A stretch of 64,000 nt of DNA, taken from positions 480,001 through 544,000 of the forward strand of contig OY970364.1 of NCBI GenBank assembly GCA_963718565.1, given 5' to 3'. Position 1 is the stretch's first letter, and each line of letters opens with the position of its first letter. Made by a program: the position numbers. The DNA is from an uncultured Verrucomicrobiae bacterium (GTDB lineage: Bacteria; Chlamydiota; Chlamydiia; Chlamydiales; Rhabdochlamydiaceae). Positions 42,001 to 48,000 of this stretch are shown here, in pieces.

Positions 42001-45000
42001 TATCATGTTGTTGTCGATCGGACGTTTCCCAGCGACATGAGGCTGGATGAATTCAATCAGCGGTTCCATGTCAACCTTTCTTACCAAGAAGCCGAAACGC
42101 TTGAGGAACTGATGACTTTGGCTCTCGGACACCCGCCTTCAAAAGGGGAGTCCGTTCGCATCGATCAGTTTGAGCTCACCGTAGAAGAAGCCTCCCTTCT
42201 AGGGGCAAAAGTGATTTTGGTTCGAACCGTCTTTTGAATCACTTCCGGTATAGTTTGTAGAGTACGTCCTTAAAAACTCATGGCAAAAGTTGAAGACCAT
42301 TTTGATCCATGCCAAACTTACCACTTATCGATCTTGATTGGGCACGGATCGAAATGGTCTTCAACTTTTGCCAGAGTCTTCAAGGAAGTTAATGTACGTG
42401 CTACCAGTCAAGGTGTGGCCGGAGAGGCTGTTTGATAACGCTGCAACCAGTTGGTCATATAGTGCAATTGAGATCGATAAATGCAAAGCCTGGCATGGAT
42501 CCAAATGACATTCAGTGCTTGCCATAGGTTTTTGAGGACGTACTTTGTAGAACGTTATGAATTAGAGATTCTCTCTCTCAGCACGTATGGATCCAAATCA
42601 ATATCATCTCCCCAAGCTAATGTGTCCGTTCTTGGATCCACTCTTACTTGGTTGAAAAAATCAACTGACTTCCAGGCTTCAAATACTCCTTTGCCGACTA
42701 AATCACTGAGATCAACTTCGCCTTCTAATCCATCATCAAAGCGGATCCAAATGCGATAATTTGGCTTAGGTTTACAAGCAATGATTTTTGCTCTTTTAAA
42801 TTCCATATCTCCACATTTATTGGAGTGGAGGAATTTTTTGTAGTTTTTTATTATTTGCAGCATAGTTCCAATCCTCAATTAACTTGTCTTGATAGATCTG
42901 AGCCCATTCCATAACAAGACTTAAGGCCCTTGGGGGCAATCCGCCTTTTAATATTCCTAGAGGAGAAATCTGTATTAAGACTTCATCATCCCCGTATAAG
43001 GACGTACCTTATTTGCGCTTAACAGGAATCCGATTGGGTTTAATGATCAGAGTCTAAAATCCATCATTTAAAATTTTCTATCCACTTCTTTCTTATTAAA
43101 TAATATTTTTGTGTGCAAACATCTTTACAGCTTAATTCCATTATCAGTTATAATAATATCATTGAAAAATTATAAATTTTTTGAGGTATTATGAGTCTTA
43201 GTTTGAATTTAAAACCTTTAAAAAAGACTAGCGTTAGTCAATTGAATTACACAATGACCCTACCTTCTCAATTACCACAATGTAAAACGTTAAAAATTTC
43301 TCCCCAATCTCAATCTACTTTACATTCTATTGAGCTGCCTATTGAGCCGCGAACTGGGGTGTAAACTTTGATCCATATTTGAAATTTTCTCTGAGCAACA
43401 ATTCCGGCAAGAAACGGTAACATCCCCCCCTCTGATATTAAACCCTCTGACTCATCCCAGTTATATTCCCAGCGTCCTACGGCGCTGTTCCGATACATCG
43501 AGATCGGCTCAGGAAGAGCCGCTCTCGATGTATCGGGCTTTATTGATGCAATACTTTGTAGGGGGATATTGAAAATTCTCTTCTAAGGAAATTTTTTTGA
43601 CTCTGTTAAAACAATCATGCAAAATGGCTCGTCTTAATTTTAGGAGAGCAGCTCTATGAATGTTCCATCACGAGATTGGCGTAAGCGAAGCCATCGTCTT
43701 TGCGAGAGTCGCGATGAATTCAAAGCGAGAAATCGCGAGAAAGCAGAAAAAATTAAGGCACTAGAGGGTAAAGCATTAGATCTTGAGCACAGTAGAGCCC
43801 AGTGGAAAAAGAAGTGTGAAGAAAAAACTCAAGAAAATAAAGCCTTAAAAAATGAAATCGCAGAAAAAGAGGCTTTGATCGAGGCAGAAAGAAAATTACG
43901 CGAACAAGAGGCTGTTACCCATGCTAAAGAGTTCGAAGAACTTAAAAAAAAATGGCAGATGCAGCAACAAGCCTCCCGGGGGAACAAGACAAAAAAATCC
44001 CTCGTCGGCGCTATTCGGCAACTGTTATCCTGATATCGCTCCTATTGATTCTTTCAGGAGGACTAAGCCTTCGCGGAGCCAGAGAGGCGTTCATTCGCTG
44101 TTATTTTTGGCTACAATGCAAAATGCCCTCTCATACTGCGATTCGCGATTGGATCTTGCAGGTGGGTTATTACAAGCTGACCTCAATTCAGAAATCAAAT
44201 GATTGGATTGGGATGATCGATTTATCTATTCAGATTGGCTCAAAAAAATGTCTTTTGATTCTGGGCGTACGGGCTACGACTTTTTTGAAAGCTAAGGCAT
44301 TGACATTTGAAGACGTACACGTTCTGCACCTGGAGGTTTTGGAAAAAACAAGTGGCCCAATCATCTATGAGATTCTCAAGAAAAGTGAAGAGACAGTAGG
44401 TCAATACAGACAATTTTGTCATGATCAAGGATCGGATATTGTATCTGCAACCAGATTGTATACGCAGAGCGTCCAAGAAGCCGAAGGCAGAAAAATTCCC
44501 GTAATGAATGATATTGCTCACAAAATAGCCAACTTGTTGGGGGTGGAAGCTGCGGAACTTGAATGGACAGAATTTGCGTCGAAAGCCTCTCAGATGAAGC
44601 AGAAACTCCAATGGACGAAATGGGCAGCACTATGCCCTCCGAGTCAGAGGAGTAAAGCTAGATATATGAATCTTGACGAACTAACCGGCTGGGCAAATAA
44701 AATTCTAGATCACCTCAAAAAAATGGAAAATGAACATCAGAAAAAAATAGAACAGAAGAATTGTGAGGTCGAAAAGAGCGAGGCGGACTTGAGGGAATTG
44801 CTTGAGCAATTTGGATGGGTCAGATCCAGTGAGCCTATGATCAAGGAAATATCCGAGATGTTGCTCATTGGGAGAATCGTAAGACAAAAAATTCGAACAG
44901 AACACCTCCACAACAAAACTGCAGAGGAGTTGGAAAAAGAGCTACAGAACCTGCAAGTAGGGGTCCGTGCTGATCAGTTTGCAGGCAGTATCCTTGATTT

Positions 45001-48000
45001 CGTGATTGATCAGACAAAAGACCTCGATCAAGTGGCTTTAGGTAGCACAGAAATTATTGAGTCTAGTTTTGGTAAGTTAAAGCAATTGATGGATGAAGAC
45101 TCAAAGGACGGATTTACCCCTTTTGTGCTGTCATTGGCCGCCTGTCTGGGAAAGTTAGACTTAGAAACTGTTCAAGCAGCACTAGGAACCTGTAACAAAA
45201 AACAAGTGAAAGCGTGGGCCGCAATGAATATTGGCGAGACAATTTATTCGCAAAGGCGTCAGCTCTTTAATCCTTTTAGGAAACGGAAGAAAAAACGAGG
45301 GCAGCTGCCTCTAGATAATGGGGGACTGGATCATACTGGATTTTTTACTGGTAATGTTGTGAATTTCTGAAAGAAAGTTTACACCCCAGCCGCGAACTCA
45401 GGTTTCCAGATCTTTATCGGATGTTTTTGCTAATATCCGGCAAGCGATTATTAATTTCTTCAAGTCGCTTTTCAATTGTTTTGGATTATTTCAAAACTCA
45501 CCCCCTTTATCTTTGCTCTCTCCATCAGAAAGGGAAAACCGTCTGTCTAAAAATGATAGTGCGATTCACCAGTGTTTAAATACACAAATGCAACGCTGTG
45601 CAGAACAGATGGCAAATGAGCCCGCCAAGAGCTTTCAATATGTGAACGCACCAAGTTCTTGGCTTGCCCATGAAGAAAGAGTAGGCAACATGCAAGTGGG
45701 AGTGGCTCATGCAATAGGTCGCCGTCCAACAATGGAAGACGAGCATCTTGCAACATCCTTTAATTTAATGATCGGTGGAAGATGCTATCCTGTTCAACTG
45801 TTTGGGATTTTTGATGGGCATGGAGGGCCTACGGCTTCGCGTTTTGTTCGCGATCATCTTCAACAAAAACTCCAAGAGACTTTGATGGAATTTAATCAGG
45901 GTGGTTTAACTGAAGCCGGCATTTGGAAGGCTCTAAAAATGACCTGTGTTCGGTTAAATAGAGACTTTAAGGATCTCCATGGTGGGCTTGTCCCGAATAA
46001 CGAAGGCAGCACTGCGACTATTGCCGTGATCTTAGACAACCATTTATGGACTGCGAATGTCGGAGATTCTCGCACGGTGTTAGAGAATAACGGTTCACCC
46101 GTACAATTATCCGAGGATGCTAAACCTAATGATCCTCGTTATCGGAGGGGCATTGAACATCGTGGGGGAAGAGTAATCAACGTCTTCGGGGTGCCTAGAG
46201 TCAATGGAGATCTTGCGATAGCAAGATCTATCGGCGATCATCGATTCAATGGCGCCGTTAGCGCGCGGCCGAAGATCACTAAGAAGCCTATGGCTGAAAT
46301 TGCACCCGGAAGCCATTTGGTTCTATGCTGCGATGGCGTTTATGATGTTTCTCGTACGGTAGACATTGCTGCCGCGACCCATGCGAATAGGAATTGCCCC
46401 CCTGGAATGCTCGCTAGAAATATTATCTATTCCGCTTATCAGGCGGGTTCGGAAGATAATCTTTCTGCGCTTGTAGTGAAGCTCTAGAATCCAAAACTCA
46501 GGTTAGACTGGGCGCAGTATAGAATGTTCGCGATGGTTTCAATGGTTGTATCGATGTCTTCGAGTGTCGTATGACGGCTTAAAGAAAATCGAATTGCAGA
46601 ACGAGCGGTTTGGGAGGGCAGCCCCATGTTTGTCAACACTCGAGAAGGTTCTAAGGCCCCTGCAGAGCAAGCGGATCCATGGCTGACGGCAATGCCTGCC
46701 ATATCGAGGGCGATTAATAGATCTTCGCCATTATTATCCGGGAAAGAGAGATTGCATGTGTTGCAAATTCTCCTTTCCGTTCCATTGACGACGACGGGAT
46801 GAATGCGCTGCATCAGTCCTGCTTCAAGACGGTCGCGTAGCATTGCCATGCGGTTTGTTGCTTCCGGAAGTTCTATTTTGAGCAACTCGACTGCTTTTGC
46901 CAGACCTATAATTCCAGGAAGATTTTCTGTTCCGGCGCGCAGCAAATATTCCTGCTGTCCTCCGGTCATATAAGGGTGGATTTTCATGGGGGAGCGGATG
47001 ATCGCAAACCCAATCCCTTTTGGCGCGTGGAACTTATGCCCTGAAAAGCAAATGCCGGAAATCCCCGGATGAAGCGCGAATTGCTCTTTTCCGAGCCATG
47101 CCACACCATCGACAATCAAAGGAATTCCTGCTTGCAGGGCAATCTGGCCAATCGCATCAATATCATGCATGACTCCTGTTTCACTATTCACAGCGGAGAG
47201 CACGATAAAACGCGTATCGGATCGAATTGCGTTTTGGATGAGTTCAGGAGGAACCGCTCCGGGAAGTCCTGCAGGCAAAAAGGAGACATCTAGACCATTT
47301 TTTTGCAGAGCTTTTAAAGTATTGTAAACAGAGGAATGCTCCACATTAGATGTGATGGCGTGACCACTGACTTTTTCAGAGAAAAACCCGCGCAACAGCA
47401 AATTGATCGCCTCAGTCCCACCAGAGGTGAAGATGACCTCATGGGATTTGACGTGGAAAAAAGCAGCGATGGTCTCCCGGGAGTTTTGCAACCGTTGCCT
47501 TGCCTCCTGTCCAAAATAATGGATGGAAGAAGGGTTGCTTGGCGTCAAGGAAAGTTCCGGAAGCATTGCTTCCAGGACTCGAGGGTCGACCCCTGTCGTC
47601 GCATTATGATCGAGGTAAATTCTTTTTTTCACAAAACTCTCACTAGAAGTAGGGTAATATTATCGTTTCCCCCCTTTTCTAGTGCAAGTTTAACTAGGTT
47701 TCTTCCCATTTCTTCCAAAGAACTGGATGAGGAAAAAATGCGGGCGATTTTATGTTCATCCACATAGTCAGAAAGGCCGTCGCTGCATAGCATATAAAGA
47801 TCTTTTGGGTGTAAAGGAATCACCCCAATATCGGGCAAGACCGAAGACTGTGTACCGATGGCGCGAGTAATGACATTGCGCAAAGGAAGAGTAGGGGAGC
47901 CGGGTTCTTCTTCATGATTCCGAAGAGGATGCTTGAGGGAATGATCCTCAGTGAGTTGTTCAAGCCGATTGCGGTAGCGATAGAGCCGACTATCGCCGAT

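Follow-up and report, generated by a model that had tools for sequence, protein, structure and literature searches.

hAT transposons generate an 8-bp target duplication and have the tip consensus YARNG, and in their representative Hermes about 324 aa separate the second catalytic Asp (D2) from the catalytic Glu. The P element transposase, a eukaryotic protein, carries an insertion domain that binds GTP and contacts DNA through a THAP domain. Among prokaryotic elements, the ISKra4 group has 9-bp repeats and GGG tips, and ISMich2 elements are 1.25–1.4 kb long with 8-bp repeats. The prokaryotic Mutator-like supergroup is defined by 8–9-bp duplications, an α-helical insert of 99–138 aa and a C/D(2)H motif 11–19 aa past D2; circles are used by all five of its families, and −1 frameshifting is required in the ISMich2 group (PMC3942029). 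TGTAAA is noted as a subterminal motif of IS256 ends in another study (PMC7780238). Slippage on runs of nine A in the orfA-orfB overlaps of insertion sequences is established (PMC1088944), and in reporters frameshifting on such a run reached 40% (PMC3711429).

The window, a 64,000-nt stretch of a chlamydial genome, contains a 2,034-bp insertion sequence on the + strand that runs from T43355 to A45388 (43355..45388). It has perfect 15-bp inverted ends, TGGGGTGTAAACTTT on the left (43355..43369, + strand; TGTAAA at positions 6–11) and AAAGTTTACACCCCA on the right (45374..45388, − strand), and is framed by two copies of the 9-bp target-site duplication GCCGCGAAC (43346..43354 and 45389..45397). 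The coordinates and ends given in the survey's finding were exact, and a whole-genome DNA search recovered all the copies that it had named, five full ones (the other four at contig positions 794697-796729, 1040278-1042310, 1655425-1657457 and 1752868-1754900) and one 848-bp deletion copy (contig 1264101-1264948). As had also been claimed, a perfect 9-bp direct repeat flanks all six (GCCGCGAAC, GTGTGAATC, GCACTGAAT, CTGTGACAT, GAGTTACGA and AACCAATAA). The element is a real insertion sequence, with all the generic hallmarks of one: terminal inverted repeats, target duplication, multiple copies and a transposase of its own.

The five full copies differ at two places only. The window copy has one extra C at element position 70, in a C-run at 43424, which is absent from the four other copies and from contigs of four sequencing runs (a probable one-base difference), and two copies are concerned by a T/A difference at element position 2024. 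In contigs of runs X3 and X5 the element is bordered by flanks that do not occur in this genome, a further sign of mobility. Elsewhere the same genome carries a genuine member of the IS256 family. The left non-coding region holds a terminator-like hairpin with 21-bp arms followed by CTTTATTGAT (43490..43536, + strand), which is missing from three shorter relatives. A promoter-like site 5' of orfA (TTGACT-17-CAAAAT, 43597..43625, + strand) is a consensus match only and lacks statistical support, because 4 such sites were found vs 3.8 expected.

Two overlapping frames, both open and conserved, occupy the + strand: orfA (43656..44033, 125 aa) and, in the −1 frame relative to it, orfB (43952..45370, 472 aa), which encodes a predicted three-helix region, an RNase H-like DDE core and an all-α insertion domain. 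OrfA can now be added to the earlier picture: it forms the N-terminal, coiled-coil part of the complete transposase. A profile built from the N-termini of 24 fused homologues matches OrfA collinearly (E 5.5e-9), the single one of the window's 343 frames to score below E 0.5. The next entry of that search is the same orfA stretch in its stop-to-stop reading. In a full-length relative the N-terminus is modelled as one long helix (residues 14–100), and OrfA is predicted to form a homodimer with ipSAE 0.60 against 0.00 for the best control; the runs share at least 93% of their contacts, with pLDDT of at least 83. Among proteins with solved structures, 21 of 30 homo-pairs and 0 of 23 single chains attain this ipSAE mark, although the pass of OrfA may partly reflect likeness, because coiled coils resemble many solved structures.

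The frames would be joined at a slippery run of nine A (CTT AAA AAA AAA TGG; A9, 43944..43952, + strand), where OrfA codon 99 would be connected to OrfB (...ELKKK-MADAAT...) either by the ribosome slipping −1 or by an additional A in the transcript. This sequence is identical in four relatives with 78–88% protein identity despite differing flanking codons, the run is the same in all five full copies, and no indel appears there in the contigs of four sequencing runs, including one of a different study. The survey had left open whether the fusion needs a frameshift or reflects an error in the A-run; because the run is kept in four diverged relatives and in the contigs of four runs, A9 is better read as a programmed slippage site than as an error. 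Relatives supplied 68 distinct junctions, of which 58 are split; in 49 of the split ones, across phyla, a run of at least seven A lies exactly at the domain boundary (nine lack it). A9 itself is found in 24 of the 36 junctions of the −1 class. Some of the relatives come from long-read assemblies, where apparent frame splits could stem from homopolymer errors. RNA folding 3' of the run falls short of significance (z −1.81). Frame splitting at an A-run is a hallmark of the family that had not been noted before, and the conserved run suggests slippage as the mechanism here.

The catalytic residues are assigned from the predicted fold and from conservation, because no family model of a known transposase reaches its cut-off. 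The model of OrfB (pLDDT 87.4, pTM 0.83) has the order β1-β2-β3-α-β4-α-β5, with D90 (44219..44221), the predicted first catalytic Asp, on β1, D158 (44423..44425), the predicted second, just past β4, and E370 (45059..45061), the candidate catalytic Glu in the motif SSEIIES, on a helix; all lie on the + strand. E367 is as conserved as E370 in a 14-sequence alignment and either may be the metal binder. The insertion domain opens with the C/DxxH-type motif D187-x-x-H190 (44510..44521, + strand), which is invariant in 115 of 115 aligned relatives, and D, D, DxxH and E are all present in 110 of the 115. The survey had described D90, D158, E370 and DxxH as invariant; in a 50-sequence alignment this is so for D158 and D187, with D90, H190 and E370 conserved in at least 90%. 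In 112 sequences DxxH follows D2 by 19–32 aa (median 24) and the Glu by 185–224 aa (median 198).

In structural comparison with VIA-align the modelled window protein is nearest to Hermes (Z 14.0, 311 residues aligned, rmsd 4.8), then to the P element (11.4) and then to ISCth4 (10.8), and the independent model of a relative with 37% identity gives the same order (14.7, 11.9 and 10.7). These values are close to those reported earlier (pLDDT 85.7, Hermes Z 14.6, ISCth4 Z 11.5), and the proposed nearness to Hermes and ISCth4 is retained, with the P element ranking between them. The Foldseek TM-scores to Hermes and ISCth4 are again low (0.25–0.37, previously 0.26–0.34), and the top Foldseek match is ISCth4 (E 4.5e-6).

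OrfB searched against Pfam, NCBIfam and PDB sequences gave best E-values of 0.64, 0.086 and 0.074, all far under cut-off, in agreement with the earlier absence of matches. Pfam was also scanned with 50, 12 and 115 relatives and NCBIfam with the 50, and no family model of either rose above its cut-off in them. Even so, the family is large and spans many phyla, with 1,894 clusters at E ≤ 0.001. As before, 113 homologues were found that carry neither a Pfam domain nor an informative name, mostly on contigs of 1.2–3 kb. The survey called the protein hypothetical everywhere, which is correct for NCBI names: all 5 NCBI-named proteins among the 113, all 14 in a second set and 3 RefSeq proteins are "hypothetical protein", and the 15 plasmid records remain hypothetical (13) or unannotated (2). 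In UniRef, however, two cyanobacterial members are named "Transposase" and one "DUF659 domain-containing protein". The family is thus unrecognised in Pfam, NCBIfam and NCBI protein names, and no description of it was found in the literature searched.

The family turned up in 7 of 151 genomes across the phylum and in none of 21 other genomes of the same taxonomic family, two of the same genus included, a pattern that also speaks for mobility; isolates with members are Gloeothece PCC 7822, Nostoc, Microcystis and Desulfonema magnum. The survey knew multi-copy relatives with 9-bp duplications from two other genomes. Such relatives do exist, and their number rises to four genomes, in which TGGGG(T/A)G tips recur together with 9-bp duplications in 7 of 7, 2 of 3, 2 of 2 and 2 of 2 copies. 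The most distant subgroup of the family, that of Persicobacter with 23–24% identity, has different ends and the 9-bp repeat in only one of three copies.

Taken together, we consider it probable that this is an autonomous, recently active insertion sequence whose transposase has an RNase H-like DDE core and is made from two frames by slippage. The transposase would be about 570 aa long, with OrfA as a long single helix forming a parallel coiled-coil dimer and OrfB supplying a three-helix DNA-binding region, the putative core (D90, D158, E370) and the all-α insertion domain led by D187xxH190. Full-length OrfAB could arise only through an A added by RNA polymerase at A9 or a −1 slip of the ribosome there, a requirement that would keep the transposase scarce and leave OrfA as the main product, probably a separate regulator that binds the ends. 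OrfAB would bind and cleave the 15-bp TGGGGTGTAAACTTT ends and insert the element at staggered cuts 9 bp apart, and donor cleavage might follow either an IS256-style copy-out-paste-in route or hAT-style cut-and-paste with hairpins.

The chances are nearly even that the family is a far-diverged member of the Mutator-like elements (IS256/ISH6/ISLre2/ISKra4), moving by copy-out-paste-in via a circle and owing its Hermes score to an enlarged insertion domain. Its 9-bp duplication (6 of 6 copies here, 13 of 14 in the four genomes) lies within the 8–9 bp of that supergroup, with which it also shares an α-helical insert, a C/D(2)H-type motif and, in the ISMich2 group, a −1 frameshift, and a replicative mode is compatible with five essentially identical copies. 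The left end has the TGTAAA noted for IS256 ends, but exact TGTAAA is lacking in relatives outside the chlamydial clade. hhalign places D158 and DxxH on the D2 and C/DxxH of IS256 and ISKra4, but at E-values that are not significant (0.14 and 0.42); with no better than E 0.017 even for IS256 against ISKra4, used as the positive control, the power of this comparison is low. The nearest named clusters in a protein atlas carry PF00872 or MULE (scores 0.78–0.81, leads only). Against this, PF00872 and NF033543 gave nothing at E ≤ 10 with the window protein and are missing from the 25 leading families (of 90 in Pfam and of 54 in NCBIfam) listed with 50 members, PF00872 is not among the first 25 of 85 Pfam families listed for 115 members, and NF033572 (ISKra4) neither matches the window protein nor appears among the matches listed for the 50. 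The spacings D2-to-E and D2-to-DxxH exceed the 99–138-aa insert and the 11–19 aa of the supergroup, ISCth4 is only third by Z in both models, and no circle junction was seen in assembled contigs, the sole data type.

It is possible, with the balance somewhat against it, that ISfinder already has a curated entry for the family, say among the ISNCY orphans or subgroups, which would make it a known insertion sequence family missed by annotation pipelines. The size of the family, its members in isolates with studied insertion sequences and the two UniRef entries named "Transposase" would agree with this, and ISfinder includes ISNCY subgroups whose repeats are 9 bp, ISMae2 among them. However, neither the CAGGG ends of ISMae2 nor the 6–7-bp repeats of ISDol1 fit, and no NCBIfam model of an IS family did better than E 0.0049 with 50 members. 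Nor do the NCBI-named members bear such a name: they include a "hypothetical protein" from Microcystis aeruginosa, a species in which "ISNCY-like ISMae2 family transposase" is in use at NCBI (PMC11448079).

Rather unlikely, to our mind, is a prokaryotic counterpart of hAT transposons in the mechanistic sense, i.e. a cut-and-paste element with a first-strand nick and a hairpin on the flanking DNA. The modelled fold is the one expected of hAT, a large all-α insertion in an RNase H core with Hermes on top, 3–4 Z above ISCth4 over 311–314 residues that include core and insertion domain, though this lead may be partly due to a larger alignable insertion domain. PF04937 (DUF659), which covers the N-terminal catalytic portion of hAT transposases, matches below threshold in 5 of 12 cyanobacterial members, always within profile positions 71–146, and in 6 of 115 diverse members, and is among the families listed one of two of transposase/integrase type with repeated sub-threshold matches; the UniRef name with DUF659 points the same way. 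These matches score only 12–14.5 bits, far below the cut-off of 34.7, and rve matches are equally common (7 of 115). In Pfam the window protein matches neither a BED finger nor the PF05699 dimerisation domain, its duplication is 9 bp and not 8, and its tips are TGGGG and not YARNG.

That the split frame is decay or a homopolymer assembly error, with copies that are dead or moved by another element's enzyme, is largely refuted and most improbable: homopolymer runs are error-prone, the window copy has its C-run difference at 43424 and nine junctions in relatives are fused, but the constancy of A9 in copies, relatives and runs, the two open frames and the boundary position of the A-runs speak against it, and no other transposase of the genome has the same ends.

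At the level of the family the element fits none of IS256, ISKra4 and hAT. Compared with IS256, the insertion domain appears about twice as long, D2-to-E being 185–224 aa vs 107 aa in ISCth4 (PMC7780238). IS256 elements furthermore have terminal repeats of 18–39 bp and one ORF, in contrast to the 15 bp and the two frames with slippage seen here. The host phyla, the 9-bp repeats and the GGG in the tips are similar to those of ISKra4, yet in Desulfonema magnum 17 matches of the present family and 13 of ISKra4 have no coordinates in common. The P element (PDB 6p5a) is the second-best structural match, over 327–328 residues at an rmsd of 7.2–7.4 Å. With Hermes (PDB 8edg / 4d1q) the family would share an RNase H-like DDE core split by a large all-α insertion domain that opens with (C/D)xxH, at 12–13% sequence identity; the motif is CxxH in hAT and DxxH here, D2-to-E is about 200 aa and thus shorter than in Hermes, an N-terminal coiled coil takes the place of the BED zinc finger, expression would go through A-run slippage, and the hosts are prokaryotic. 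A wider reading, that the family is the missing prokaryotic counterpart of hAT, broadly of hAT / P / Transib-RAG, with the enlarged α-helical insertion shared by descent and hairpinned double-strand breaks as a possibility, strikes us as unlikely. If true, a bacterial and archaeal insertion sequence family would be the prokaryotic root of that eukaryotic branch, as IS256 is for Mutator.

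The element at window positions 43355–45388 is bounded by perfect 15-bp inverted ends (TGGGGTGTAAACTTT ... AAAGTTTACACCCCA) and flanked at both sides by GCCGCGAAC, in agreement with the survey's finding of a 2,034-bp insertion sequence (IS) with ends of that length. A DNA search of the whole 2,284,058-bp genome returned four other complete copies, all 100% identical, and a further one from which element positions 687–1870 are missing. Extraction of all six copies with their flanks showed a perfect 9-bp direct repeat at each (6/6), different from site to site, so the survey's count of duplications was correct as well. 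Six independent 9-bp matches are not chance, and the element is thus an insertion sequence that has multiplied recently. Only two positions vary among the five full copies: an extra C in the window copy and a T/A difference inside the right end in two copies. New element flanks are also present in other samples, as seen in contigs of other sequencing runs. The insertions disrupt genes, with stop-free frames of 270–556 codons crossing five of the six reconstructed empty sites. No empty site was shown by a same-genus genome, which lacks both the IS and a sufficiently similar flank, and no circle junction with abutted ends was seen in the assembled contigs of sequencing runs.

At window position 43424 the C-run has one C more than in the four other copies and in the contigs from four sequencing runs, and the extra base is either private to this copy or an error of assembly. 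The 848-bp deletion copy (contig positions 1264101–1264948) keeps both ends, the whole of orfA and the A9 run (nine A's at the orfA–orfB junction) and has lost the catalytic part. It could still make OrfA, and a contig of sequencing run X3 shows the same deletion joint. Removal of the IS from the window in silico leaves a 419-codon stop-free frame that crosses the insertion site into a PP2C phosphatase gene (PF00481, E 1.7e-39; window 43191–43364 and 45513–46487), and the IS may therefore have cut an N-terminal extension off this gene. The window also holds a MITE-like self-complementary repeat of 181 bp (42262–42442), with a second partial copy near 42467–42545. The 181-bp repeat has 111 BLAST matches in the genome on both strands, many of them 99–100% identical, and at contig position 794697 an IS copy lies within one such repeat.

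The element contains two reading frames, orfA (43656–44033, 125 aa) and, in the -1 frame, orfB (43952–45370, 472 aa). Their overlap starts at CTT AAA AAA AAA TGG, where the A9 run occupies 43944–43952, and a TAA directly upstream of the overlap closes the orfB frame. A -1 slip or one added A in the mRNA would give the joint product ...ELKKK-MADAAT.... The left non-coding region (~300 bp) holds a hairpin with 21-bp arms followed by a T-rich tail (43490–43536) and a promoter-like site (43597–43625). Promoter-like and terminator-like sites within the element are no more numerous than expected by chance, so we regard both features as anatomy and not as evidence. The hairpin has an 81%-identical counterpart at contig positions 925801–925856 of the same genome and is absent in three shorter IS relatives. 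With the ends abutted, TTTACA of the right end and TAAACT of the left could in principle form a junction promoter; this idea was dropped because the two would stand 12 bp plus the spacer apart and because the motif is not kept in multi-copy relatives.

The survey had allowed for an A-run error at the OrfA–OrfB junction. Against such an error, CTTAAAAAAAAATGG is identical letter for letter in four metagenomic relatives (OrfB identity 78–88%), which also keep the two-frame layout and differ in the codons either side of the run. Contigs from four public runs, one of which belongs to another study, likewise show no indel in the A9 run, and none of the four has the additional C that the window carries at 43424. 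Comparison of these sequences points to a programmed A-run at the orfA–orfB junction.

Junctions were surveyed at 87 loci (the window, 80 genome and 6 metagenome loci) by searching six-frame translations for the N-terminal domain and for the core. Both parts were found in 82 loci, two being without the 5' part of the core and three without an N-terminal match. Among 68 distinct junction sequences the core lies in the -1 frame in 36, in the +1 frame in 22, is fused in nine and is in frame with a stop in one. At least seven A's stand exactly at the junction in 49 of the 58 split junctions; A9 is found at 24 of the 36 -1 junctions, and A9 or A10 is retained in three of the nine fused ones. A9 with -1 and A8 with +1 would both come into frame at A10, just as A8 with -1 and A7 with +1 would at A9. 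The run lengths are thus coherent with the frames. Addition of one or two A's by RNA polymerase would be expected to produce this pattern, and we infer that such addition takes place at the junction run. In the window element an identical protein would result from a ribosomal -1 slip on A_AAA_AAA; as a frameshift stimulator, the RNA fold that follows the A-run (z -1.81) is unconvincing. Slippage on runs of nine A's at IS orfA–orfB overlaps is described in PMC1088944, and reporter assays in PMC3711429 gave frameshifting of 63, 40 and 10% for 11, 9 and 7 A's, respectively. A number of relatives are taken from long-read assemblies, which may contain homopolymer errors; short-read contigs and isolate genomes have the same split-junction pattern, and slippage is most probably a family trait. 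In Desulfonema magnum (G121, which holds loci L026 and L119) a second family member, its frame fused and 586 aa long, occurs in twelve identical copies; one 545-aa member there retains an in-frame A9 run at the junction.

Sequence comparison identifies OrfA as the transposase's N-terminal domain. Many single-protein relatives of 519–548 aa have, in an N-terminal extension, the repeated SR(D/N)xWKxK motif that is also present in OrfA. A profile of fused-homologue N-termini (24 of the 49 other sequences in the OrfB alignment A1) matches OrfA at E 5.5e-9 in a collinear manner (profile 12–92 to OrfA 9–89). Only the frame that holds orfA scores with this profile among the window's 343 stop-to-stop frames, none of the others falling below E 0.5. 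The model of the full-length relative P0117 (548 aa) consists of one continuous helix (14–100), a disordered linker, three short helices and the catalytic core. Two OrfA chains are predicted to form a parallel, in-register coiled coil with a score of 0.60 against 0.00 for the best control (a mark reached by 21/30 solved homo-pairs and 0/23 solved single chains), at least 93% contact agreement among runs and pLDDT of at least 83, a pass that may partly reflect likeness since coiled coils resemble many solved structures. OrfA by itself probably serves as a dimeric regulator, the joined OrfAB would be the active DDE enzyme, and the ends of the element may be read by the three-helix region together with the basic helix.

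For OrfB no sequence match was found in Pfam, NCBIfam or PDB, as the survey had reported, and PDB sequence profile searches with 50- and 148-sequence alignments returned no transposase. A word-indexed search gave 113 relatives, and an exhaustive search 1,894 clusters at E<=0.001 (1,015 of them reach E<=1e-10, and 255 reach E<=1e-30), these ~1,900 clusters being counted at 50% identity. D90, D158, D187, H190 and E370 are kept in 110 of 115 aligned sequences, with spacings across 112 sequences of 65–76 aa (D1–D2), 19–32 aa (D2–DxxH) and 185–224 aa (D2–E). In the AlphaFold model of OrfB (pLDDT 87.4, pTM 0.83) the strands follow the RNase H order; D90 lies on the first of them, D158 comes after the fourth, E370 opens a helix, and an all-helical insertion occupies about residues 188–355. 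In a 14-sequence alignment E367 is as conserved as E370, so either Glu could be catalytic. Two long members, P0197 (654 aa) and P0217 (632 aa), have an extra N-terminal PF20586 (DUF6788) match above the cut-off (E 2.3e-8 and 1.2e-17, respectively).

Multi-copy relatives with TGGGG(T/A)G...C(A/T)CCCCA ends and 9-bp duplications occur in a chlamydial chromosome (duplications at 7/7 copies), a Parachlamydiales assembly (2/3), Desulfoferrobacter suflitae (2/2) and a Planctomycetia assembly (2/2), that is in four other genomes where the survey, right about their existence, had counted two. Two copies in a Desulfobacterales assembly (loci L043 and L045, about 37 kb apart) have exchanged flanks, CCAACAATC standing to the right of one and to the left of the other, which points to inversion or other recombination between them. 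The Persicobacter copies, the most distant subgroup (23–24% identity), have neither TGGGG ends nor a regular duplication, and two Nostoc plasmid copies are without mutual DNA similarity, so no ends can be defined by comparison. A genome scan confirmed 144 family loci spread over many phyla, two of the assemblies being labelled archaeal; hosts belong to the Chlamydiota, Desulfobacterota, Planctomycetota, Cyanobacteria, Bacteroidota and Gammaproteobacteria, besides metagenome-assembled genomes labelled archaeal. The family was found in 7 of 151 genomes of the window's own phylum and in none of 21 other genomes of the same taxonomic family, two of them of the same genus, a distribution that fits horizontal arrival of the element.

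Wherever NCBI gives a name, it is 'hypothetical protein' (5 among the word-indexed matches, 14 in a further set and three RefSeq accessions). The same holds for 13 of the 15 plasmid records, the other two being unannotated, which reproduces the survey's count for plasmids. Its broader statement that the family is hypothetical everywhere applies to all NCBI names given and fails for three UniRef members (two 'Transposase', one 'DUF659 domain-containing') and one atlas cluster auto-named 'Transposase family protein'. Full-text literature searches turned up no account of a family of this kind, nor of any hAT-like insertion sequence in prokaryotes. No ISfinder group is known to combine a length of 1.75–2.0 kb and 9-bp repeats with TGGGG tips and an OrfAB joined at an A-run; that the family is already curated there is possible but doubtful. 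We consider this a genuine and well-characterised case of a large IS family that standard annotation does not see, with a predicted hAT-like fold and apparently slippage-coupled expression. Now called hypothetical, the family breaks assemblies into 1–3-kb contigs, and a family model would put many annotations right. Its natural series from A7 to A11, with both frame offsets and fused forms, offers a clean system for slippage-coupled transposase expression.

A VIA-align search of 48,161 chains with the OrfB model ranked Hermes first (Z 14.0, 311 aa, rmsd 4.8), followed by P element (11.4), ISCth4 (10.8), retroviral integrases (8–10), RAG1 (8.5), Transib (8.2) and Tn5 (7.3). The model of P0117, 37% identical, gave Z 14.7 for Hermes, 11.9 for P element and 10.7 for ISCth4, and the survey's nearest neighbours, Hermes and ISCth4, thus come first and third with both models. 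Foldseek with the OrfB model gave E 1.3e-4 for Hermes, 8.3e-4 for P element and 4.5e-6 for ISCth4, with TM-scores of 0.24–0.37 for these chains. These enzymes all have an alpha-helical insertion domain with a C/DxxH motif, and the His of this motif makes contact with the scissile phosphate (PMC7780238); on these shared features the modelled window enzyme probably belongs to the same structural group.

Neither of the IS256 models, PF00872 and NF033543, gave a match with the window protein or stands among the first 25 families listed for 50 relatives; PF00872 is likewise absent from the first 25 listed for 115. Motif spacings of the family also fall outside the ranges for all five prokaryotic Mutator-like families in PMC3942029. 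The ISKra4 model NF033572 matches neither the window protein nor 50 relatives, and the 17 matches of the window's family in Desulfonema magnum have no coordinates in common with the 13 ISKra4 matches there. Profile-profile comparison by hhalign with small alignments of IS256 and of ISKra4 brought the D2 and DxxH regions together correctly; the scores were not significant, and with a positive control that was weak as well the comparison lacked power. Donor cleavage by the IS256 route is a serious possibility that we stop just short of favouring. A true IS256-family element (PF00872; 11 matches, seven full length, 401-aa open frame) is present elsewhere in the same genome, at contig positions 111614, 150121, 754260, 1482148, 2184757, 2246286 and 1358177, outside the window.

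Among the hAT hallmarks, the dimerisation domain PF05699 gave no match and no zinc finger was found, and the duplication is 9 bp in the window family against 8 bp in hAT. PF04937 (DUF659), the N-terminal catalytic region of hAT enzymes, gave repeated matches far below the cut-off in 5/12 cyanobacterial and 6/115 diverse members, and rve gave sub-threshold matches in 7/115. Donor cleavage by the hAT route seems unlikely. The D2–E distance of Hermes is about 324 aa. That of ISCth4 is 107 aa (PMC7780238), and the insertion domain of the window enzyme is between the two in size. With a fold between the compact insertion domain of IS256 and its large counterpart in hAT and P elements, the family could show how this domain grew and could reveal whether hAT-type enzymes have a prokaryotic origin. 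A member of no named family tested, the element would, on the modelled structures, work like the group of Hermes, P element and ISCth4.
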